DNA of 64,000 nucleotides from Phycisphaerae bacterium (GTDB lineage Bacteria; Planctomycetota; Phycisphaerae; UBA1845), in contig CAXXGO010000006.1 of NCBI GenBank assembly GCA_963666835.2, positions 2,080,001-2,144,000 on the forward strand, read 5' to 3'. The first letter of the stretch is position 1. Every line of letters begins with the position of its first letter. The notes beneath the pieces were generated by a model that saw nothing but the letters and a program-made list of their open reading frames with translations, ran no database searches and was not told the DNA's origin. Of this stretch, positions 24,196 to 55,343 are shown one piece after another. The translations under genes were made by a program, and so were the position numbers.

Positions 24196-24433
24196 CGACG
24201 GGATAGTAACCTATCGGGATGTTCGGTTCGAGGATCGTAGCCGGCGGGGCGGCGTCCTTTACCAAACCGGTTGAAGAGAGTACGGTGGTTCGGGAGGCAA
24301 TGCCGGTGAATCGCAGTGCCGAATCTGCCGTTTTCGGGATTGGGTAGAAACGACCGATGTAACATCCGTGGCAGCGCGAACGAGGCCGCAATGTGCGGTC
24401 GAAGCGGTCATTCTCAAGTTCTGGAAGCTATCC

Positions 24434-25609
24434 ATGGGTAACGAGGGCAAAGAGGGAGCCAACGGGCCGCCGCAGACGCCGTCCGCCGACGCGCTGCTTG
24501 CGGCGTTTGCCGGCGCCGATGAGTCGGAACGCTATCGTCTGCTGTCCAGCGTGCTCTCGGGCATGGCCGACAAGAGCGGTGCCGTCGACAGCGGCAGCGC
24601 GGCAGAGGTCGAAGCCCTGTCAAAGAGGCTGCAGGAGGCCGCGGAGGAGAAGGCCGCCCTCGCCGATCAAATCGCCACTGTCAAGGCTGATCTCGGGCTC
24701 GCGACTTCGAAGCTGGAAGCGGAGCAGACCCGGGGGCACGAACTCCAGTTGATTACGGAAGAGCAGCGCGAGCGCATGGAGTCCTCCCGGAAGAAGCTGC
24801 AGGAGGTCGAAGCGCAACTGCAGGCCCGCAATGCGGAACTGCACAAGACCCAGGTGGAAAATGAAGACCTGCTGCTGAAATTGCAGCGATCAGAGGCCAA
24901 GGTCGGCGACAGCTCCAAGACGGACCGGTTAGAGGAGGGTCGCAAGGTTCTCGCGGCCGAGAACGCGGAGTTAAGCAGGCAGCTCGAGCAGCTTCGGGCG
25001 GACAAGGACGCCGACATCACCCGGTTGACCGAGGAGCTGGCCGCGGCGCGCTCCGGGGCGTCCGGCAAGGGGACTTTCGACTTTCCTGCTTTGTGGGAGC
25101 GGCTCGCCGCGGCAGATTCGGCGCTGGTGGAGGGGCACGTGGCGCCCACGGAACAGGCGGCCGAGCGGTTGTTTGAAAGCTACATAGAGCTGGTGCGGTT
25201 CGTTGACAGTTTCGACCAGTTGCTCCGTCCGTTCCTTACTAAGTACACCCGGGACCATCCACCGGTTCGGGTGCCTTGGGATGTCTATGCCAAGCGGGAC
25301 GGTGCGCGGGACACCGTGAAGCAGGTTCTCGCTCCGATTGGTGGTAAGCCAGTGGGTTTTTTGAGGGTGAAACTGCGTGGTTTGTATCGTTGGGTCGAGG
25401 CGGCCATGATCGGATCCGATGCTGCTCTTGAATCCGTGGCCTCCGAACTTTATACCTTTGCAATGGACAAGGAGCCGTACGGCGCCGGCTCCGATCCCAA
25501 TCGAAAAGTCAAGGAGTTCCTCCGAGAGAACGGCCCCGACCTTTTCCTTCAGCGAATGCGCGAGCTTCGCGGGTCGAAAATCGCGGACGTCTTCGGGCGA
25601 GGCGCTTGA
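24434..25609 (+). CDS. Coiled-coil protein with a TagH/Fha C-terminal-like domain and no FHA domain
   Basis: About 170-aa heptad-rich region; LRGLYRWVEAAMIGSDAALESVASEL resembles the TagH C-terminal helix; sits directly upstream of tssJ. Confidence 0.5.
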   Translation: MGNEGKEGANGPPQTPSADALLAAFAGADESERYRLLSSVLSGMADKSGAVDSGSAAEVEALSKRLQEAAEEKAALADQIATVKADLGLATSKLEAEQTRGHELQLITEEQRERMESSRKKLQEVEAQLQARNAELHKTQVENEDLLLKLQRSEAKVGDSSKTDRLEEGRKVLAAENAELSRQLEQLRADKDADITRLTEELAAARSGASGKGTFDFPALWERLAAADSALVEGHVAPTEQAAERLFESYIELVRFVDSFDQLLRPFLTKYTRDHPPVRVPWDVYAKRDGARDTVKQVLAPIGGKPVGFLRVKLRGLYRWVEAAMIGSDAALESVASELYTFAMDKEPYGAGSDPNRKVKEFLRENGPDLFLQRMRELRGSKIADVFGRGA

Positions 25610-46010: not shown

Positions 46011-48443
46011 ATGGCTTTGATACGTGATTTGAGTGAGGCGCAACTGGCCTTTCAGGTGGCCGGCGGTGAGGTCGATCAGTTTTCGGTGAACCGGTACCGG
46101 GGCACGGAGGGGCTCTGCCGGCTATACCGGTTTGAAATAGAGCTGTCGTCTACCGATGAAGCGGTGGTCTTCGATGATATCGTTGGCAAGCCGGCGGTTC
46201 TGAGCATCAATACGGAAAACGGCACACGCTGGTTTCACGGTATTGTAGGCCGCTTCGAGTTGACCGGCGAGACTGCAGACCAGAATTACTACCGGGCGGA
46301 ACTAGTGCCGAGTGTTTGGCTGCTGACGCACCGGTACGGCTCTCGGATCTTTCAGGCTAAGACGGTTGTCGAGATCATCAACGATGTGCTGGTGCAGGCT
46401 GGAATCCCCTCAGACCGTTTCAATCTCGGCGACTTGACGCGAACGTACGCACCGCGCGACTACTGTGTGCAGTATCGCGAGACGGACTACAACTTCATCT
46501 GCCGCCTGATGGAAGAGGAAGGAATCTGGTGGTATTTTCAACAGACTGAGGAGGGGCATACCCTGGTCGCGGCGGACGCCGCCTCCGCCTATGCGCCGAT
46601 CGAAGGCGGAGCCGAGGTGCCGTATCATCCCCCGGCCGGGATGAACGTGGAGACGGAGCACGTCTTTCGTTTTCGGTTGGGGCAATCGGTGCGGCCGGGC
46701 GCGGTCGTTCTTAACGACTTCAACTTTGAGAACCCGGCGCTCGACCTGGAGTCCGCCAGTAACGCGGGGCGGGATCCCGGTCTGGAGTTCAGCGACTATC
46801 CGGGCGAATACGCCGAACAAGGCGCGGGAGGGAGCCTGGCCCAACTCCGCGTCGAAGAGTTCGAAGCCAGCCGTTTCCGCGGCACCGGGCAGAGCAATTC
46901 ATACCGCTTCAGCCCCGGCAAGACCTTTGAACTGGTCGAGCACCCCAGTGAACCGATCAACCGTTCTTACCTGATCACTGCAGTGACCCACGAGGGACGT
47001 CAGTCGGTTTCCCGTACCACCGGTCCGGCGGGCGAGGAGAACGGGCGTGGTGATCGCACGGCGCAGCGTACGAGTACGGAGTGGCTCTTCCATGGCGGAC
47101 AGGTGGCGCGGGATGTACCCAGTGCCGCGGCGGTGTCCGGTGGAGATCCGGTCGGGGCCATGGCACTCCCGAATCAGTTGAATGACGCCCCGGCGCCGGG
47201 CGTTGGAGAGGGTACCCTGTCGGTATACGAGACGTCCTTCGAGTGTATTCCGTCGGAGGTCACCTATCGCCCGCCGCGAATCACGCCCTGGCCCGTAATG
47301 CGCGGAGCCCAGACGGCGCGCGTGGTAGGCCCGGCCGGCGAGGAGATTTACACCGACGAGTATGGCAGGGTGAAGGTCCATTTCAATTGGGATCGCGAAG
47401 GGCCGTTCGGTGAGTCGGATTCGTGCTGGATCCGGGTCAGCCAGGGCATGTCCGGTGGGCAATACGGGATGATGTTCCTGCCACGGGTGGGCCAGGAGGT
47501 GATTGTCGACTTCCTGGAAGGCGATCCCGACAAGCCGATCATCACCGGTCGGGTCTTTAACCAGGACCACATGCCGCCCTATACTCTGCCCGCCGAGAAG
47601 ACCAAGAGTGTCATCAAGACGCAAAGCAGTAAGGGTGGCGGGGGGACCAACGAGATCCGGTTTGAAGACCTTAAGGGTAGTGAGCAGATTCTCATTCACG
47701 GGCAGAAGGACCTGCACATTAACGTCGGGAACGATCGGGTCGAGAACATCGGACACGACCACCATCTGACGGTCAAGGAGAACAAGTTCGAGCTGGTCAA
47801 GAAGGCCAATAACATTGAGGTGAAACTGGACCAGAATGAGAAGATCGGGGGCAAGAAGTCCCTTGATGTCGGCGGGGATGTGGTAGAGAAGTTTGGCGGC
47901 AACCACAAGAGTGAGGTCACTATGACTCAGGCCGTCAAAGCTCTGAGCATCAAGCTGGAAGCTTCTACCGGTATCGAGCTGAAGTGCGGGGGCAGCAGTA
48001 TCGTCTTGACGCCGGCGGCGATTTTCATTGTCGGCGGGCCGCTGGTGAACATCAACAGCGGATCCGGACCGCCCGTTGGTCCGGTCACGGCGACGGCTGC
48101 GGCGCCGGAAGCGCCGGTAGATGCGGACAGCGCCGAGCCCGGTCGCGACGTCACTTACTCCGGCGGCGGACAACTTGTCGAAGGCGATGAAGTTTCAGGC
48201 ATTGCCGGACACACCTTCGAAGGGGAAGAGCCGGAGGAGCCGGAGACGAGCTGGATCGAGATTGAGCTGAAGGACGATCAAGGAAACCCGATACCCTATG
48301 AGCGTTTTGAGGTCAAGCTTCCTAACGGTAGGGTGCGGAGGGGGTCACTGGACCGGAATGGCTTGGCTCATATTGCTTCGCCGCCGGGTGAGTGTGAGAT
48401 TACATTCCCCAACTTAGACCAAGAGGGGTGGGGGCGAGATTGA
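46011..48443 (+). CDS. vgrG: T6SS spike VgrG/TssI with a C-terminal transthyretin-like extension
   Basis: YCVQYRETDYNFICRLMEEEG, QTARVVGPAGEEIYTDEYGRVKV, PRVGQEVIVDFLEGDPD, gp5 beta-repeats, DUF2345-like tail, WIEIELKDDQGNP domain. Confidence 0.97.
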   Translation: MALIRDLSEAQLAFQVAGGEVDQFSVNRYRGTEGLCRLYRFEIELSSTDEAVVFDDIVGKPAVLSINTENGTRWFHGIVGRFELTGETADQNYYRAELVPSVWLLTHRYGSRIFQAKTVVEIINDVLVQAGIPSDRFNLGDLTRTYAPRDYCVQYRETDYNFICRLMEEEGIWWYFQQTEEGHTLVAADAASAYAPIEGGAEVPYHPPAGMNVETEHVFRFRLGQSVRPGAVVLNDFNFENPALDLESASNAGRDPGLEFSDYPGEYAEQGAGGSLAQLRVEEFEASRFRGTGQSNSYRFSPGKTFELVEHPSEPINRSYLITAVTHEGRQSVSRTTGPAGEENGRGDRTAQRTSTEWLFHGGQVARDVPSAAAVSGGDPVGAMALPNQLNDAPAPGVGEGTLSVYETSFECIPSEVTYRPPRITPWPVMRGAQTARVVGPAGEEIYTDEYGRVKVHFNWDREGPFGESDSCWIRVSQGMSGGQYGMMFLPRVGQEVIVDFLEGDPDKPIITGRVFNQDHMPPYTLPAEKTKSVIKTQSSKGGGGTNEIRFEDLKGSEQILIHGQKDLHINVGNDRVENIGHDHHLTVKENKFELVKKANNIEVKLDQNEKIGGKKSLDVGGDVVEKFGGNHKSEVTMTQAVKALSIKLEASTGIELKCGGSSIVLTPAAIFIVGGPLVNINSGSGPPVGPVTATAAAPEAPVDADSAEPGRDVTYSGGGQLVEGDEVSGIAGHTFEGEEPEEPETSWIEIELKDDQGNPIPYERFEVKLPNGRVRRGSLDRNGLAHIASPPGECEITFPNLDQEGWGRD

Positions 48444-51166
48444 TGTCACAATTCAGATCAGCTATGGATAGAGTATCCTCCGTCGCCGACCAAGCGCGAG
48501 ACGCGGTCTCCGGCGCGCAGCAAGCGGCCCAGCAGCTCGGCGATCAAGTCGAGGGAGGACTCGTTACCGTTCGCGAAGGCGACTGGATCATGCAGTTGGC
48601 GGAGGAATTCGGACTCCCCAACTGGCAGAAGGTCTGGAATGCCCCGGAGAACCAGGAACTGCGGGAAAGGCGTATCCACCCTAATCTTCTGCAGCCCGGA
48701 GATCGGGTTTTCATCCCGTCCCTGCAGCAGAAGACGGACAACGGGGAGACCGAGGTTCGCCACAGATTCACGAAGCCTACCCCGAAGGCGATGATCCGCT
48801 TGGTTATGGAAAACGCGGAGCGCGTTCCCCTGGCCGGTGCCCAATACGTTATGCAGATTCGCGATCAGATCATCACCGGAATGACTGATGCGCAGGGCAA
48901 GATAGAGCACGAAATACCGCTCGGGGTCGAGCGGATCGCCTTGCGCTTCCAGGGGGAGATGGCCGATCGGATCGGATTTCTGCAACAGGGGTTGATCGCG
49001 CCGCAACTCGCCTCCGACTACAACACCATCCGCGCGTTCTTCAAGACTCCGATGGACCCGGAGTACGTGGCCGGTTTGCGTCTGCAAGCCAAGAAACTCG
49101 TCTCCGGGGTTACCGGCATCCTGCAAGGGCAGATCGACGGAGTGGTTGAGAAGGGGGCGGGGCTGCTCGACTACGTCGACGAGCACGCCGGCGAGATTCT
49201 CGGCAAGATCGCCGAGGCCGAGGGCGTCGTTTCCGGGAAGATCGACGAAATTGCCGGACAGGTTTCCGACAAGGCCGGCCAATTGGCCGACAAGGGACGC
49301 GGTTTGCTGGACCAGGCTCAGGGGCAAGTGGACAAGGCCTCCGGAATGGCGGCGGCGTTGGAAGCTCAGGCACGGCAGATGGCGGGCGAGGCAGCCGGCA
49401 AGGCTCAAGGCGTGATTGACGACGTAGTTTCGCGGGCCGATCAGGCCGTCGACCAGTTCGAGGGCCAGGTAAACGCGGCTATGGCCAAGATGATTCAGGC
49501 CGAGCAGCAAGCCCGGGCGAAGATCTCCGAGACGGCCGGCCAGGCCCGCGGGGCGATTGAAGAAGGCGTCCAACGTGGCACCGACGCGGTTCAACAGACC
49601 GAAGCCCGAGTCCAGGCTGCTATTGACGAAGCCCATCGGGCATACGCGGGTACCGTTCAGGAAGGTACCGAACGAGCCCAGGCTGCCGTCGACGAAGCCT
49701 CCCGTGCCGCTCAGGAGTACGTTACCGATTTGGTCGACAGGAATGTCGATCGGGCTCAGAACTGGTTGAATGGCAAGTTGTACGAGGCGCAGCAGCGCCT
49801 TCATGAGGGGATTGGACAAGCTGCCGACGCAGGGCGCGAGGCTTATGGGCAGGCTCGGGCAGCGGCCAACAATGCCGCCGATGCCGTCGAGGCTCAGTCG
49901 CGCAGTTTGTTGGGCGAGTTCGGCCGACTCATGCACGAGGCGACGGACAACCTCGGGGAGCAGGCCAAGAAGCTGGCTCGTGATCTCGGCATCCCCGCCG
50001 ACGGCGTTATCGACGGACTTATGCAGGAAGGTCATCGTCTGATCCAGGATGGCGAGCAGCAGGGTCAGGAGTTGATCACCAAAGGCCGCAGCCGCGCCGA
50101 GGACGGCATGCAGCAGGTCGATCAGCAGGTCGAGACGGGTATTTCCCAGGCCGAGGAGGAAGTGACAACCGCTGTCGATCAGGAGGTCGATCGCGCTTAC
50201 GCCCAGATCGATCAGTGCTCCCGGGAAGCCAAGCAGGCTTCCGAGGAGGCTCGCCAGCAGATTGTCGATACCGCCGGGCAGGTGAAGGACGGGATAGGGC
50301 AAGCCGGTCAGGCTGCCCAGGATGCCGGGCAGCAAGTTGCTGATGCCGCGTCGCAAGCAACGCAACAGGCTTCGCAGGCCGTTCAAGGAGGTATGCAGCA
50401 GGCCGGGCAGGCCGCCACCAATGCGGTCGGCCAAGCGGAGTCGGCCGCCCAGGGCGCGGTGGATCAAGCCGCGGCGATGCGCGACCAGATGCACGGGAAG
50501 GTGCAGGATGGTATCGGACAAGTTCGCGAGGGGATCGGGCAGGCCCAGGAGCAGGCCCAAGCTTACGTTGAAGCGGCGAAGCAGGCCGTGGAGGGCGGTA
50601 TTGGAAAGGTCGGCGAGATGCGCCGGGAGCTGGCCGCTCGCGCCGGCGAGGCGATCTCGCGCGGGCGCGAAGCAGTCGATGAAGCTGAGAAACAAGCCCA
50701 GGCGGCTGTCGAGAAGGGTAGGCAGGCGGCTCAGGACGCTGTCGGGAAGGTGACGGAGGCACGCGAAAAAGCTACTGAGATGCTCTCGGATGCCACGGGA
50801 CGTGCCCGCAGGGCAATCACTGACACGGCCATGCAAGCCCAGGAGGCCGTTGCTGACGCGGGAGCGCAGGTTACCCAGGCGTTCGACATCTTCAACGATG
50901 CGGATCTTGGGCAGTTGCTTCCCAATCCGGAGGATCTGCTCGAGCAGATTCCGCTGAATATCGGTCACCTCGATCCGGGCAATGAACTTAGCGGGGTGAT
51001 CGGGCGGTTGGACAATCTCGGCTTCGACGCCGGGCCGGCCCATGCGTTTATGGGCCAAGCTACTCGCGAAGCTATCCGGCGGTTCCAGCATGTGGAAGGA
51101 CTGGTGACCAGCGGCGAGATTGATGCCGGCACTCTGGGGAGACTCATAGAACGGCACGGCTGCTGA
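48443..51166 (+). CDS. LysM, transthyretin-like, long Ala/Gln-rich helical repeat and peptidoglycan-binding domain protein (T6SS-associated)
   Basis: VREGDW...HPNLLQPGDRVFIP (LysM-like); C-terminal RLDNLGF...TREAIRRFQ...GLVTSGEID (PG_binding_1-like); TGATG coupling with vgrG. Confidence 0.8.
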   Translation: MSQFRSAMDRVSSVADQARDAVSGAQQAAQQLGDQVEGGLVTVREGDWIMQLAEEFGLPNWQKVWNAPENQELRERRIHPNLLQPGDRVFIPSLQQKTDNGETEVRHRFTKPTPKAMIRLVMENAERVPLAGAQYVMQIRDQIITGMTDAQGKIEHEIPLGVERIALRFQGEMADRIGFLQQGLIAPQLASDYNTIRAFFKTPMDPEYVAGLRLQAKKLVSGVTGILQGQIDGVVEKGAGLLDYVDEHAGEILGKIAEAEGVVSGKIDEIAGQVSDKAGQLADKGRGLLDQAQGQVDKASGMAAALEAQARQMAGEAAGKAQGVIDDVVSRADQAVDQFEGQVNAAMAKMIQAEQQARAKISETAGQARGAIEEGVQRGTDAVQQTEARVQAAIDEAHRAYAGTVQEGTERAQAAVDEASRAAQEYVTDLVDRNVDRAQNWLNGKLYEAQQRLHEGIGQAADAGREAYGQARAAANNAADAVEAQSRSLLGEFGRLMHEATDNLGEQAKKLARDLGIPADGVIDGLMQEGHRLIQDGEQQGQELITKGRSRAEDGMQQVDQQVETGISQAEEEVTTAVDQEVDRAYAQIDQCSREAKQASEEARQQIVDTAGQVKDGIGQAGQAAQDAGQQVADAASQATQQASQAVQGGMQQAGQAATNAVGQAESAAQGAVDQAAAMRDQMHGKVQDGIGQVREGIGQAQEQAQAYVEAAKQAVEGGIGKVGEMRRELAARAGEAISRGREAVDEAEKQAQAAVEKGRQAAQDAVGKVTEAREKATEMLSDATGRARRAITDTAMQAQEAVADAGAQVTQAFDIFNDADLGQLLPNPEDLLEQIPLNIGHLDPGNELSGVIGRLDNLGFDAGPAHAFMGQATREAIRRFQHVEGLVTSGEIDAGTLGRLIERHGC

Positions 51167-51287: not shown

Positions 51288-52178
51288 ATGCCCCCGGCAG
51301 CGAGAGTTACTGATATGCACACGTGCCCGATGGTGACGGGTGTGGTGCCGCACGTGGGCGGGCCGATACTCCCGCCGGGACATCCCACCACCATGATCGG
51401 GTTCATGCCGGCCGCCAGGGTCGGCGATATGCTAACCTGCGCCGGTCCGCCGGACACGATCGTCAGAGGGTCGCCGACGGTGCTGATTGGGAACATGCCG
51501 GCGGCCAGAATGGGCGACAACACCGCGCACGGCGGAGTCATTGTTGTCGGACACCCTACCACGATGATCGGCGATGCCGGTAGCGGTGGCGGCGGCGGTG
51601 GCGGGGGTGGTGGCCTCGGCGGCGGCGGAGCCGGGTCCGGAGACGGTCGGGTGCTCTCCGGCCCGGATGAGCAGCTTCGCCAGGAGGTTGTCGAAGCGGG
51701 CAGCATCAGCGGTCCGGCGATTGTCAGCGGGGTCAGTGAAGATCAGGTTGGTCCGCTTGAGCCGGACGAATCGACACAGGATCCGACGTGGATCGCGGTT
51801 ACCGTTCAGGACTTCGATGGCACCGCTATTGCGAACCAGGACGTGACCATCACGCTGGACGACGGTCAGGTCCGGTCCGGTCGCACCGATGAAGAGGGCC
51901 GCGTCAGGTTTGAAGACGTCCACCCGGACCAGGGGCAAGCATCTATCAGTGGCATCTCGGACGAGCAGGAACACGAGGCGGAGCAGCGCGACGAACCCTC
52001 GGACAGTGGTGAAGAGCGGACGCAAACGCAAGGACGGACCGCGGGCCGGCCGCCGGATCGGCCGACGCCCGAGGATGACGCTCCGTCTGACGAGGAGCTG
52101 CTCGCGCAGTTCCCGGCTGACCTTGAGTGGTTCGAAGACGACGAGGAGAACGAAGATCAGGCGGAACAACCGACGTGA
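51288..52178 (+). CDS. PAAR domain protein with a Gly linker, transthyretin-like domain and acidic tail
   Basis: Three PAAR motifs (PAARVTD, PAARVGD, PAARMGD) with HTCP, PH and TAHGG metal ligands. Confidence 0.95.
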   Translation: MPPAARVTDMHTCPMVTGVVPHVGGPILPPGHPTTMIGFMPAARVGDMLTCAGPPDTIVRGSPTVLIGNMPAARMGDNTAHGGVIVVGHPTTMIGDAGSGGGGGGGGGGLGGGGAGSGDGRVLSGPDEQLRQEVVEAGSISGPAIVSGVSEDQVGPLEPDESTQDPTWIAVTVQDFDGTAIANQDVTITLDDGQVRSGRTDEEGRVRFEDVHPDQGQASISGISDEQEHEAEQRDEPSDSGEERTQTQGRTAGRPPDRPTPEDDAPSDEELLAQFPADLEWFEDDEENEDQAEQPT

Positions 52179-52277
52179 TGACTCTTACGTGTCACCAGCC
52201 GCGGAGTTGAAGGGGATTGATGACCGGCGCGATGATGAAGAGCTTGAGTCTGATTGTGCCGGGCGGAGTTTCTGGCG

Positions 52278-54101
52278 TTGAGTAATGACGGAGAGACATT
52301 GCGAAGACCGGTCCGAACGGACCAGGATACCGTAATCCGGCTGCGCCCGTTCGAAGTGCAGAACGTCAGTTGCGACGCGCGGTGGGACCCGCAAGGGGAT
52401 CCGCTTCGAGTGTACTACGAGATTAACGATCCCAACAGCCGCATCCGTTCCGGGAGAATCCTGTATACCGCACGAGGGCCTGACGGTGAGGAGGTGACAC
52501 TCTATCGTCAGGCGCTGGAACGATCTCAGTTCGTCCACGCGCGGTGCTATGAGCTGCGCGAGAGCGAACGGTGGGACGGAACGATTCGGGAGGGTATTAC
52601 GGATCGGATCGGTGAGAAGATCACGGCCGATCTTTCCTTCTTCAGCGTGACGGTAGAGGTGTGGAACACGCGCGAGGCGGAGCCGGCGGCGCGGGTGCGG
52701 GGTGGACAGGGTCGAACCGAACGCGAGGGTGAGTATCTATCGAGCGGGGTGGCGAACGTCGAGGTGGACGCAATTGTCCAGGGGCGCTGGGGGAGCGAAT
52801 GGGTGATTCCCTACGATGATCCGGACGAGCCCGACAAGGGCGAAGCTACGATATCTCTTAGGGTTAAGAACGTCCGTGAGAACACCAGTGCGCGAATCGT
52901 GGTCAGCCGGATAAACGAGATTGCCAACGCCGAGAACGACTACCTTTATGTTGACACCTCCTGGGGGCCGGAGGAGCAGCCGGGTCTGCAGGGATTGGTA
53001 GTACGCAACGGGCGGGTCCTGCAAAGCGACGGCAGCGATCCGAAGGTGCGCTTCAACGTTTATGAGGAGCACTGGAAGTACCCGGGGATCAACTTCTATC
53101 AATTCGGGGTGGCTTTCGGCGAGAACGGGTATGACATGGTGGCGTCAGAGCGAGACTACGTCAACAATGAAAGGGACTGTCTCAACATGCGTTTCACCGT
53201 GTTGATTGAATGCTCCTCCCTCGGCGACGAGTATCGCACCGCGACTGACCAGTTATGGCGTTTCCTGAAGCGCGAGACGAAGTACTTTCGTCCGTACAAG
53301 CTCATGAACCGCGTACGGAATATCGACGACTGGATCAAACACTATCGCAATCGTTATATCGTCACGATTCAGGGCCACGGGGGTGTGTACTGCGCTCATA
53401 GCGACCATCCGACGCGCACGGTTGGCAGCGGACGCCGCGCCCGAACCGAGCGGATGGACATGTACCACCGGGGTTTCGCTCCCGACAACTACTACTGTCC
53501 GACCGGTGTCGAGGAAACCGAGGCCGGCCGCCGCGAACACCGTTGGGCTCTACGCCACTACGGGCATCCCTTCGGCGGCTGCGGCAATTCCAGCCATGTC
53601 TACCACAGTCTTTCGCTTTCGCAGGATCGCAGCACGCGGCGGAAGATGTTGGCGGTGAATTTGCCCAACCAGGATACCAGTTTGCGTCCGCAGGTAGCGC
53701 TAGGGAAGAGGCGCGGTCGATCCGACGAACGCGTGATCCGTATGCTGGGGGTCGACGATAACGGGCCGCGGCTCTTGTTCTATGCGGGCGGATGCCGGTC
53801 CATGTTGTCCAAGAATCTGGGGGAACGGTTCACCCGCAATGGAACAAAGCACTACCACGGATGGGTCTGGAGCGTTTGGATTCGCGAGAACCGCCGTTTC
53901 TGTCTAGACCTGTTCCGCCGTTGGATCAAGGGGACCGAGGGTGATCCGCCGGCTTCGGAGTGTGAACTGAGCCGGTTCCTGCCGGCCTATCGCGCGGCGG
54001 CGGCCCGTTCATTTGTGAACTCGCATCCACGCATAATGGAAGGTCGGAACGTGTTGAGTATTCGGGCGGCTCCGGATCGAGCGGAGGGGGCTTCGTCGTG
54101 A
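52278..54101 (+). CDS. Putative T6SS effector with a C-terminal clan CD (caspase/gingipain-like) His-Cys domain; start uncertain
   Basis: IVTIQGHGG and LLFYAGGCRS...LGERF...GTKHYHGW; located after vgrG-PAAR; no signal peptide. Confidence 0.6.
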   Translation: MSNDGETLRRPVRTDQDTVIRLRPFEVQNVSCDARWDPQGDPLRVYYEINDPNSRIRSGRILYTARGPDGEEVTLYRQALERSQFVHARCYELRESERWDGTIREGITDRIGEKITADLSFFSVTVEVWNTREAEPAARVRGGQGRTEREGEYLSSGVANVEVDAIVQGRWGSEWVIPYDDPDEPDKGEATISLRVKNVRENTSARIVVSRINEIANAENDYLYVDTSWGPEEQPGLQGLVVRNGRVLQSDGSDPKVRFNVYEEHWKYPGINFYQFGVAFGENGYDMVASERDYVNNERDCLNMRFTVLIECSSLGDEYRTATDQLWRFLKRETKYFRPYKLMNRVRNIDDWIKHYRNRYIVTIQGHGGVYCAHSDHPTRTVGSGRRARTERMDMYHRGFAPDNYYCPTGVEETEAGRREHRWALRHYGHPFGGCGNSSHVYHSLSLSQDRSTRRKMLAVNLPNQDTSLRPQVALGKRRGRSDERVIRMLGVDDNGPRLLFYAGGCRSMLSKNLGERFTRNGTKHYHGWVWSVWIRENRRFCLDLFRRWIKGTEGDPPASECELSRFLPAYRAAAARSFVNSHPRIMEGRNVLSIRAAPDRAEGASS

Positions 54102-54595
54102 GTGAGAAGAAGCTTAAAGAAAGATCGGTTGCCGACATCGAGCGGATCGTCGCAGAGGGTCCGCGCGAGCCGCGCGTCGTCCATTGCGAGGAAGAACGGC
54201 AGTGGAATGAGCTTCTTCTGTACAACGTCTCAGAGCACCGCTTGCACGTTCTCGCTCGTGGGGGGGACTTCGTCGTCTTCTACGATGCGGACGGTAAGGA
54301 GATCGGTTGGCGTGACGACGGGCGCAAGGGCACCGAGAAGCCGATGTGGATCGATCGGGACTCGTTTCGCAAGGCCGTGGTCGAGGAGCTGGGACTTCCC
54401 AAGGTGACCCGGCTGGGCAAGTTGTCGGTGCGGGAGCTGCCTCCCCTCGGGTGGACCCATCAGGGGGTCTTCTTCCTGTCGGCGACGCCCACGCCTGATC
54501 AGGTGTTGCGGGTCTGGGCTAATCCGGAGGATCATCGGGTCATTCAGTGCCTTTTCGGGCCCGTTGATGGCCAAGCTTCAGGAGAACAGCCGTGA
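54098..54595 (+). CDS. Putative immunity protein A1 (PepSY/YcdB-like)
   Basis: GTGA overlap with the effector stop; similar to 54831-55343. Confidence 0.55.
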   Translation: MSEKKLKERSVADIERIVAEGPREPRVVHCEEERQWNELLLYNVSEHRLHVLARGGDFVVFYDADGKEIGWRDDGRKGTEKPMWIDRDSFRKAVVEELGLPKVTRLGKLSVRELPPLGWTHQGVFFLSATPTPDQVLRVWANPEDHRVIQCLFGPVDGQASGEQP

Positions 54596-54834
54596 CCGAG
54601 GAAGAAGCCGTCGCCATCGTTGAGCAGGAACGCGAGGCCCTGCGGATCCCCCCGCGTATGGGCGTCAGCTCCGCGGAGAAGGCCATTGTGGAGTTTATGA
54701 AAGACCGTTCTCGCGCGGGCCGGGTCGAGAATCGTGTCGCTTGGATCGTTGATCTGGCCGATGCTGTCGGTTTCGTGCGGGTGCATGTCGACGATCGCAG
54801 CGGCGAGATACTGGAGGTACTGAGAACCGTATGA
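54592..54834 (+). CDS. Putative immunity protein B1 (single PepSY-like domain)
   Basis: MTEEEAVAIV...AWIVDL...VHVDDRSGEIL; GTGA overlap. Confidence 0.65.
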   Translation: MTEEEAVAIVEQEREALRIPPRMGVSSAEKAIVEFMKDRSRAGRVENRVAWIVDLADAVGFVRVHVDDRSGEILEVLRTV

Positions 54835-55343
54835 CCGCGCCAAGTCAACTGAAAGAGACCGCCGCTAAGCGTGTGCTCGATATTCTCGCCGAGCGGCTTG
54901 AGCGCGGTGGGATTTCGACCAGTCGTCCGGACTGGTACTTCCAGACCGAGGCGGGCGATCCCCAGGAGTTTCCCGGTGGCTGGCAGGTGCGGGTGCGTAC
55001 GTGGCGGCATTGGTCCGATGCGGCCGTGCATTTCGACGCGGACACTGGGGAAGTACTGCATTGGAGCGTGGATCGGCTATCCGACCCGCCGACGAATGCG
55101 AAGTTGACTCAGGAAGAAGCTCTCCGCATAGCGGCGGAGATTATCGAGATTCCGCTTGATGCCGAGCTACACCGTTTCGAGCACGAGGAGTATGCCGAGG
55201 GGGGGCGCCATGTCGCCCGGATTGAGTGGAAACGGGTCCACAAAGGGCTGCGAGTGGACGGGGACTATCTATGGGTGATGATTCACCCGGAGACGCACCG
55301 GTTGGTGGCCTTCGGTCGAAAATGGCGGACGATGGAGAAGTAG
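54831..55343 (+). CDS. Putative immunity protein A2 (PepSY/YcdB-like)
   Basis: VHFDADTGEVL, LTQEEALRIA, WKRVHKGLRVDGD; ATGA overlap. Confidence 0.65.
   Translation: MTAPSQLKETAAKRVLDILAERLERGGISTSRPDWYFQTEAGDPQEFPGGWQVRVRTWRHWSDAAVHFDADTGEVLHWSVDRLSDPPTNAKLTQEEALRIAAEIIEIPLDAELHRFEHEEYAEGGRHVARIEWKRVHKGLRVDGDYLWVMIHPETHRLVAFGRKWRTMEK

Follow-up and report, generated by a model that had tools for sequence, protein, structure and literature searches.

A putative wall-binding protein with a long helical insert lies behind vgrG

The window analysed here is a stretch of 64,000 nucleotides from a Phycisphaerae bacterium of the phylum Planctomycetota (assembly GCA_963666835.2, contig CAXXGO010000006.1, forward-strand positions 2,080,001 to 2,144,000), and it carries a gene cluster for a type VI secretion system (T6SS). 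Within this cluster, a gene for a protein of 907 amino acids (aa) stands directly behind the gene for VgrG, the last 68 aa of which are a transthyretin-like (TTR) domain. As the original prediction had it, the two genes are joined, the ATG of the 907-aa gene overlapping the TGA of vgrG by one base. The features of the protein, as read from its open reading frame (ORF), Pfam, homologues and AlphaFold2 (AF2) models, are as follows.

48443..51166, + strand: LysM-like/TTR/peptidoglycan-binding protein with long helical insert, 907 aa (ORF, Pfam, homologues, AF2)
48443..48556, + strand: N-terminal amphipathic helix, aa 1-38 (AF2 helix 2-34; poorly conserved, 38% identity to homologue L032)
48557..48721, + strand: LysM-like domain, aa ~39-93 (51/88 family members match Pfam LysM; homologue model versus MltD LysM, Z 6.9, root-mean-square deviation (rmsd) 1.3, 47 aligned)
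48782..48949, + strand: TTR-like beta-sandwich, first part, aa ~114-169 (AF2 strands; homologue model versus the VgrG TTR of enteroaggregative Escherichia coli (EAEC; 6sjl), Z 6.0, rmsd 2.1, 56 aligned)
48950..49132, + strand: conserved insert base, aa ~170-230, short strands and helix (aa 169-260 best conserved versus L032, 86%; 16 invariant columns in 6 insert forms)
49154..49987, + strand: outgoing helical arm, aa 238-515 (AF2 helices 238-374 and 376-515; 11/3 period)
49988..49999, + strand: Pro518 turn, helix midpoint, inside the conserved tip region aa ~430-590 (Pro present in 5/5 further complete insert forms in the alignment; both models break the helix here)
50000..50860, + strand: returning helical arm, aa 520-806 (AF2 helices 520-651 and 656-806)
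50948..50968, + strand: final TTR-sandwich strand, aa 836-842, downstream of the insert (short-form profile split round the insert; sandwich of the P0006 homologue model spans 112-634)
50969..51166, + strand: PG_binding_1 domain, aa 843-907 (Pfam PF01471, 36.8 bits, cut-off 23)

Residues 226-812 (587 aa) are 20% Ala, 14% Gln, 11% Gly and 9% Glu and contain a single Pro, at position 518. Hydrophobicity along the insert follows a period of 3.65 residues (11/3) with a power of 38.8, where 200 shuffles reached 11.9 at most, and this signal is the strongest among the 3606 frames of at least 300 aa in the genome. Self-similarity peaks at lags of 7, 11, 18 and 22, and no DNA tandem repeat accounts for the insert, a 12-bp duplication being the only one seen. 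These values bear out the earlier description of an almost Pro-free region rich in Ala, Gln, Glu and Gly with an 11-residue amphipathic period. The same description had the protein lacking a signal peptide, and by hydropathy (no dedicated signal-peptide predictor was used) we found no hydrophobic stretch in its first 45 aa and saw no Sec or Tat signal or membrane anchor in it; the best 19-residue hydropathy mean is 0.92 and the mean of the tip is -0.37, with no hydrophobic segment.

The gene is intact in contigs of two studies, one of which may be the source of the assembly; a contig of the second study spans it without a gap. Its nearest named homologue lies in a Planctomycetota metagenome assembly. 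A search for homologues of similar length returned only P0002 and a VgrG, P0003, while a further match to a genome contig (L001) was discarded as spurious. We take an antisense ORF (48458-51157, - strand, 899 aa) to be a shadow frame of the 907-aa gene.

The insert splits the TTR domain of a common three-domain module

Judging from profile and domain matches, the 907-aa protein almost certainly belongs to a large family of LysM-like/TTR/PG_binding_1 proteins of about 210 aa. Its aa 41-215, used in a full HMMER scan, matched 3933 cluster representatives at E<=0.001. Among the best 150 of these, 98 are 195-240 aa long and 122 carry the module uninterrupted. An insertion interrupts it in 7 others, of 325-660 aa in three and of 24-45 aa in four, and the C-terminal part is missing from 21. 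The module is present in 19/400 genomes of the phylum, and clusters like it in the ESM Atlas, few members of which have a record, are mostly from Myxococcota, Acidobacteriota and Pseudomonadota. The short homologues beside vgrG mentioned in the original prediction do exist, and one of them stands behind vgrG in Thiodictyon (Chromatiaceae).

The assignment of the three domains agrees with what had been proposed. The C-terminal domain exceeds the Pfam cut-off for PG_binding_1 over aa 855-901, and 84 of 88 aligned family members match this family. The LysM-like domain has no Pfam match in the 907-aa protein at E<=0.01 and is identified by the fold of the homologue model together with the Pfam matches among the 88 relatives, and the TTR-like domain is identified by its AF2 strands and its fold match to 6sjl. 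Wall binding by the LysM and PG-binding domains is predicted from these family assignments; since the best match for the LysM domain in the PDB is a phage baseplate protein, a role in protein-protein contacts is also possible for it.

The short-form profile of about 212 columns is present in order on either side of the insert, positions 5-136 corresponding to aa 41-172 and positions 125-212 to aa 819-907. Homologue P0004 is divided in the same way (positions 3-139 before its insert and 137-212 after it), as are the other long forms. Short members have a strand just ahead of the insert site and, a few residues further on, the strand that leads into the PG-binding domain. In the AlphaFold model of P0006, two alignments to macroglobulin domains place the sandwich at residues 112-634 (71 aligned, rmsd 3.0) and 114-633 (68 aligned, rmsd 2.3); with Z about 6, we use them for topology only. 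By these profile matches, the insert is placed between the last two strands of the TTR domain. The LysM, TTR, insert base and PG-binding domain are modelled as one compact head, the ends of the protein being predicted with local confidence (pLDDT) mostly of 85-97. Since the sandwich includes the strand that follows the insert, both putative wall-binding domains would sit in this one head, with the helix leaving and re-entering through a single loop. The insert thus very probably loops out and back, and the arrangement originally proposed, of two wall-binding ends held apart by a helix, is not upheld.

The insert is a conserved part of one clade's proteins

Eight sequences constitute the insert clade: the 907-aa protein, L032, P0004, the partial P0002, the fragment P0005, P0008, P0006 and P0157. 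They form a single clade with local support of 1.0 in a FastTree phylogeny (78 sequences, 209 core columns, midpoint root) that took in 70 of the 98 short hits. Their inserts measure 667 aa in the 907-aa protein, 671 in L032, 670 in P0004, 458 in P0006, 334 in P0008 and about 460 in P0157. All four close forms show a strong 3.65 period, which is only marginal in P0006 and missing from P0008; the latter two keep the base and tip motifs and contain 14-19 Pro. Residues that never vary are concentrated at the base (179-216) and at the midpoint (432-434, 508-530 and 579-586, in the fuller list, which omits P0008).

Between the 907-aa protein and L032, which are 72% identical, the insert has one indel, of 4 aa, and shows a dN of 0.196 against a dS of 1.92, which is close to saturation; its dN/dS is about 0.1, similar to that of the head. 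The length of the insert is nearly exact even at 45% identity, and the PG-binding domain is strongly conserved (65-81%). By its substitution pattern, the insert is under purifying selection. The insert is conserved within its clade. It is rare, found in 0/60 relatives and 1/400 class genomes, and scoring of 8000 candidates turned up 5 proteins with it. Genome G645 holds an almost identical copy of P0157 and has its TssC and TssF elsewhere. P0005, only 169 aa long, breaks off at the point of insertion and continues in an unrelated tail, the result of either a broken gene or a sequence error.

A related composition is seen on another spike protein. The Blastocatellia VgrG P0003 (MER3430669.1) carries a Gln/Ala-rich 11-mer amphipathic tail of about 350 aa (aa ~715-1058), apparently a second, independent case of such a helix on a T6SS spike protein. 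We treat the tail as a compositional likeness, because its score against the insert (40.0 bits) only weakly beats that of its own reverse (27.3 bits).

Predicted shape of the insert

With Pro518 as midpoint, the helices 238-374, 376-515, 520-651 and 656-806 of the AF2 model make up two arms, one of 278 aa (about 42 nm) and one of 287 aa (about 43 nm). The hydrophobic stripe of the insert is 38% Ala, 9% Gly and 47% large hydrophobic residues. Charges on the two arms are complementary in the antiparallel sense at i+j~1032 (r -0.28 to -0.33, a value reached by 6-15/500 block shuffles), and we regard this complementarity about a Pro518 turn as modest. Neither model found a specific match for the insert in fold searches; in structural alignments, the outer helices pair in the manner of SMC or chemoreceptor hairpins and the inner helices are bundled. 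AlphaFold has folded back the stalks of UmbC, which are straight by cryo-electron microscopy according to the part of that report considered here (PMC11062931), and the insert may therefore form a straight hairpin. On the models, such a straight hairpin would reach up to ~42 nm, and one folded again into a shorter bundle ~20 nm; a single long hairpin is slightly favoured.

The module is linked to VgrG-type TTR domains

The partner proposed for the head is the C-terminal domain of VgrG.

46011..48443, + strand: VgrG, 810 aa, the sole vgrG found in the genome (Pfam Phage_GPD, Phage_base_V and Gp5_trimer_C; TIGR03361; single tblastn match)
48237..48440, + strand: TTR-like domain at the C terminus of VgrG, aa 743-810, where docking is proposed (aligns with TTR ends of related VgrGs; weak co-fold with the 907-aa protein)

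Among 33 module matches in other genomes, 31 were fetched and one was dropped for want of a LysM part, leaving 30 loci. In 20 of these, a VgrG-type TTR ends no more than 200 nt upstream on the same strand, and the pairing also occurs in two named plasmids. Genomes that carry the module have a VgrG-type TTR in 18/19 cases, compared with 11/381 of the others (8/9 carriers outside the set used to build the TTR profile). A TTR is fused in front of the module in 3/150 best hits, two of which are in turn fused behind PAAR (P0108 and P0151). The order vgrG(TTR)-insert gene-PAAR is found in 3/3 insert loci with DNA. When aa 41-907 were co-folded with the VgrG TTR, the score was 0.55, against 0.00 for the best control; the mark applied is reached by 116/157 solved pairs and 2/215 mismatched pairs, and at scores <=0.60 by 18/157 and both mismatches. 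At least 95% of the contacts are common to the runs, the partner pLDDT is at least 79, and the co-fold lends weak, model-based support to docking on the VgrG TTR. Gene pairing, PAAR-associated fusions and co-fold together support the spike association first proposed, and we consider it likely that the head docks on VgrG.

The module is fused to a glucosaminidase in P0129, and phospholipase D or beta-lactamase-like ORFs follow it at L043:1442-3637, L052:3460-7503, L048:3755-5134 and L053:8417-9757; 16 of the 23 downstream ORFs scanned behind modules are without a Pfam match. Two stand-alone proteins with six or seven tandem VgrG-type TTR domains (L039:8392-9909 and L046:4468-6339) adjoin a short module and could be multivalent loading platforms.

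A proposed role and its alternatives

We propose that the 907-aa protein is a VgrG-docked cargo or co-effector that carries a conserved tip on a variable stalk, a proposal that we hold to be just short of an even call. The head would dock on the C-terminal VgrG TTR in up to three copies per trimer, be fired with the spike and grip peptidoglycan in the target periplasm. The insert would form an antiparallel helical stalk with an Ala/Val/Gly core and a turn at Pro518, displaying the conserved tip (aa ~430-590) for the binding of a protein partner; the stalk would thus be a non-toxic arm, differing in length between lineages. Whether this arm is indeed a non-toxic, partner-binding one is evenly balanced in our judgement, and a tether in the sense of a head-to-tip link of up to ~42 nm is our preferred reading of the insert. 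Docking of this kind fits two precedents, each taken from the part of the report considered here: the VgrG TTR of EAEC binds its cargo Tle1, three per trimer (PMC10433429), and in Ketobacter a non-toxic LysM protein bridges VgrG and a toxin, PG_binding_1 genes also recurring behind vgrG (PMC10673891).

A number of observations count against this proposal. Ten of the 30 loci lack an upstream TTR, and the TTR profile was built partly from the same loci; the module follows 5/8 other vgrG-TTR loci and 0/3 of those that are independent of the profile. The co-fold passes only weakly, with no interface output and 8 alignment rows for the 907-aa protein, and it may echo solved TTR complexes. As to the stalk, AF2 gives its arrangement low confidence (predicted template modelling score 0.39, with pLDDT <50 at the base and end of the stalk) and folds the insert into a four-helix bundle. 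The hairpin register about Pro518, first noticed in a narrower scan, ranks 11-47/700 on the averaged profile, other and shorter registers scoring better.

The main rival is an apolipoprotein-like payload, in which the head docks and grips the wall while self-paired helices open on lipid and coat or solubilise the target membrane, as a toxin or a lipid scavenger; we think this rather unlikely. A class A helix is an 11/3 amphipathic helix with basic flanks and an acidic polar centre, and the insert has a true 11/3 period and class-A-like charges (K/R 12-19% in the flanks; D/E 35% versus K/R 6% in the polar centre), although basic flanks fit a coiled coil as well. This much of the apolipoprotein- or late embryogenesis abundant (LEA)-like helix first suggested is retained; family membership is not, since the insert stays below the Pfam cut-offs for Apolipoprotein (PF01442, 47.2 of 90 bits) and ApoLp-III (PF07464, 31.4 of 36.3 bits), scores that still lean towards this rival, and Pfam has no LEA family match at E<=0.01. 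The similar 11-mer tail on the Blastocatellia VgrG and enzyme cargo on relatives such as P0129, with its glucosaminidase, also speak for a payload. Yet the insert has no hydrophobic segment, its net charge is -38, and 0/569 windows exceed the threshold of 1.34 of the lipid-binding discriminant, a measure that favours cationic helices. Its one Pro provides no 22-mer punctuation, and P0006 and P0008 keep the conserved motifs with weak or no periodicity and many Pro. Nor was a conserved immunity gene seen behind the 907-aa gene: PAAR follows directly in 3/3 loci and, within 5.9 kb, the window and L032 share no downstream ORF (immunity elsewhere is possible), the cargo region differing between them despite the 72%-identical gene. 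In a more specific form, quite improbable in our estimate, the long form would be a T6SS-delivered apolipoprotein mimic, a closed hairpin on the spike that, with its head pinned to target peptidoglycan, opens on the membrane as a double lipid belt and strips or scavenges lipid without pore or enzyme; two ~42-nm arms would circle a disc of ~13 nm.

The protein might instead never leave the cytoplasm, loading or stabilising the spike as an assembly adaptor or a largely inert decoration whose helix is a tolerated loop expansion. The same loop does hold insertions of 24-45 aa in short members, and the insert is very rare and ranges from 334 to 671 aa, but the selection on it, as strong as on the head, its near-exact length at 45% identity and the invariant motifs in all insert forms make this unlikely, and the strong conservation of the PG-binding domain would be hard to explain in the cytoplasm. 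An anchor in the cell's own wall, with the helix crossing a wide periplasm, could make up for parts that the T6SS seems to lack: TssJ (PF12790) was not found in the source genome, which is 92% complete, and TssL is short (265 aa) and without an OmpA-type match. TssJ/SciN is among the weak TTR-fold matches, and wall-anchoring accessories fill such gaps elsewhere, as far as the portion of PMC13584744 considered here goes. We nevertheless hold this to be highly improbable, as hydropathy shows neither a signal peptide nor a membrane segment, and the module pairs with VgrG and PAAR TTRs rather than with tssLM, a pairing seen in an orphan vgrG island as well and where a genome has several copies. 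Finally, 667 residues at 0.15 nm each make 100 nm, and length is nearly fixed in close relatives (667, 671 and 670), whence the suggestions of a tape measure or of a 100-nm ruler or spacer between two wall-binding ends. Both are scarcely credible: the two ends of the insert lie in one beta-sandwich, so that the termini are not at opposite ends of an extended chain, and 122/150 best relatives lack the insert. The tape measure is rejected on this topology and because, in the text of PMC8632748 considered here, T6SS tubes take their length from the width of the cell with no such element, the cluster in the window being of the TssA/ClpV type. We return, then, to a VgrG-docked protein with a tip on a stalk as the reading we prefer.

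The T6SS cluster and its neighbouring genes

The cluster in the window is a complete TssA/ClpV-type T6SS with tssK, tssL, tssM, tagF, tssA, tssB, tssC, hcp, tssE, tssF, tssG, clpV, vgrG, the 907-aa gene and PAAR. In the source genome, vgrG, PAAR and hcp have one tblastn match each. Downstream of the 907-aa gene lie the following features.

51288..52178, + strand: PAAR protein, extended at its C terminus by a TTR/Ig-like part (the genome's second TTR match)
52254..55343, + strand: 615-aa candidate effector, followed by small ORFs of 165 and 170 aa (not common to the 72%-identical locus L032; presumed effector and immunity roles)

No match worth naming was found for the 615-aa ORF in Pfam, NCBIfam or the PDB, nor a significant one to the neighbour gene of L051. 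The ORF contains a His-Gly and a later Gly-Gly-Cys motif, which we take to recall caspase/gingipain-type peptidases, and one low-depth contig (run X5) has a 2-base insertion in it. The 165-aa and 170-aa ORFs, the latter with DUF4901, are candidate immunity genes. Elsewhere in the cluster, TssM is 1590 aa long and a 413-aa coiled-coil ORF (24368-25609) precedes tssK. A second, divergent VipB/TssC-like ORF lies outside the main cluster, both in the source genome (C1:2068354-2069172) and in G645 (C3:31334-32176). The VgrGs of L032 (4939-7878) and L073 have a helical-looking insertion of ~100 aa between their gp27 and gp5 parts, where the VgrG in the window has a shorter low-complexity stretch.

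Significance and comparison with known systems

The short module is very common, with thousands of clusters, and a rule by which TTR domains dock such modules would annotate many genes for a "peptidoglycan-binding protein" behind vgrG and give spike cargo a handle for loading. With the long form comes the question of how a helical arm of 20-40 nm is stowed on the spike and passes through the membrane complex; lipid binding by it, if true, would be a new effector chemistry.

Exchangeable apolipoproteins, apolipophorin III and group 3 LEA proteins, as their features are commonly described, have the same 11/3 helix and class-A-like charges. The insert differs from them in scoring below Pfam cut-offs, in having an Ala/Val rather than a Leu face, in the lack of Pro-punctuated 22-mers and in being embedded in a folded, spike-associated head. 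ClyA-family toxins and bacterial dynamin stalks have long helical bundles that align to the insert with Z 10-14.7 (the ClyA-type match has Z 13.6 and rmsd 8.1 over 279 aligned residues, among unrelated helical bundles). These scores are in the range of unrelated bundles, with rmsd 6-20 A and 4-9% identity, and the insert has no hydrophobic tongue or membrane hairpin. The top Foldseek match (E 7.9e-9) is the stalk of the umbrella toxin UmbC (8w20), described in the part of PMC11062931 considered here as long Ala-rich helices running out and back in a stalk of ~30 nm. With a TM score of 0.12 and an rmsd of 66.7 A, this is an analogy of shape only, and the 907-aa protein has no identified ALF repeats, twin-arginine (TAT) signal or toxin domain.

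Closer parallels are found among spike cargo. In EAEC, VgrG has the same TTR end and the next gene encodes the proposed cargo, Tle1 (6sjl; PMC10433429, as far as considered here), and the TTR of the 907-aa protein's family matches the 6sjl TTR fold; Tle1 is a phospholipase with an immunity protein, whereas neither a catalytic domain nor a conserved immunity gene was seen for the 907-aa protein. The proposed co-effectors of Wang et al. 2023 (PMC10673891) occupy the same position behind vgrG, are of the same two domain types and occur in stand-alone and toxin-fused forms, and Chromatiaceae, to which Thiodictyon belongs, is the family named there for PG_binding_1. The main text of that paper, in the part considered here, deals with single domains and has neither the LysM-TTR-PG_binding_1 module nor a pairing with the VgrG TTR nor a helical insert. 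The Tvp paper (PMC13373197), again in part, concerns another subject than this family. No description of the module, its TTR pairing or the long insert was found in the literature searched, which did not cover subscription journals; the supplementary domain tables and loci of PMC10673891 may bear on the short module. The class of LysM and PG_binding_1 genes behind vgrG is known, whereas the three-domain module as a unit, its pairing with the TTR and the long insert appear undescribed in that literature.

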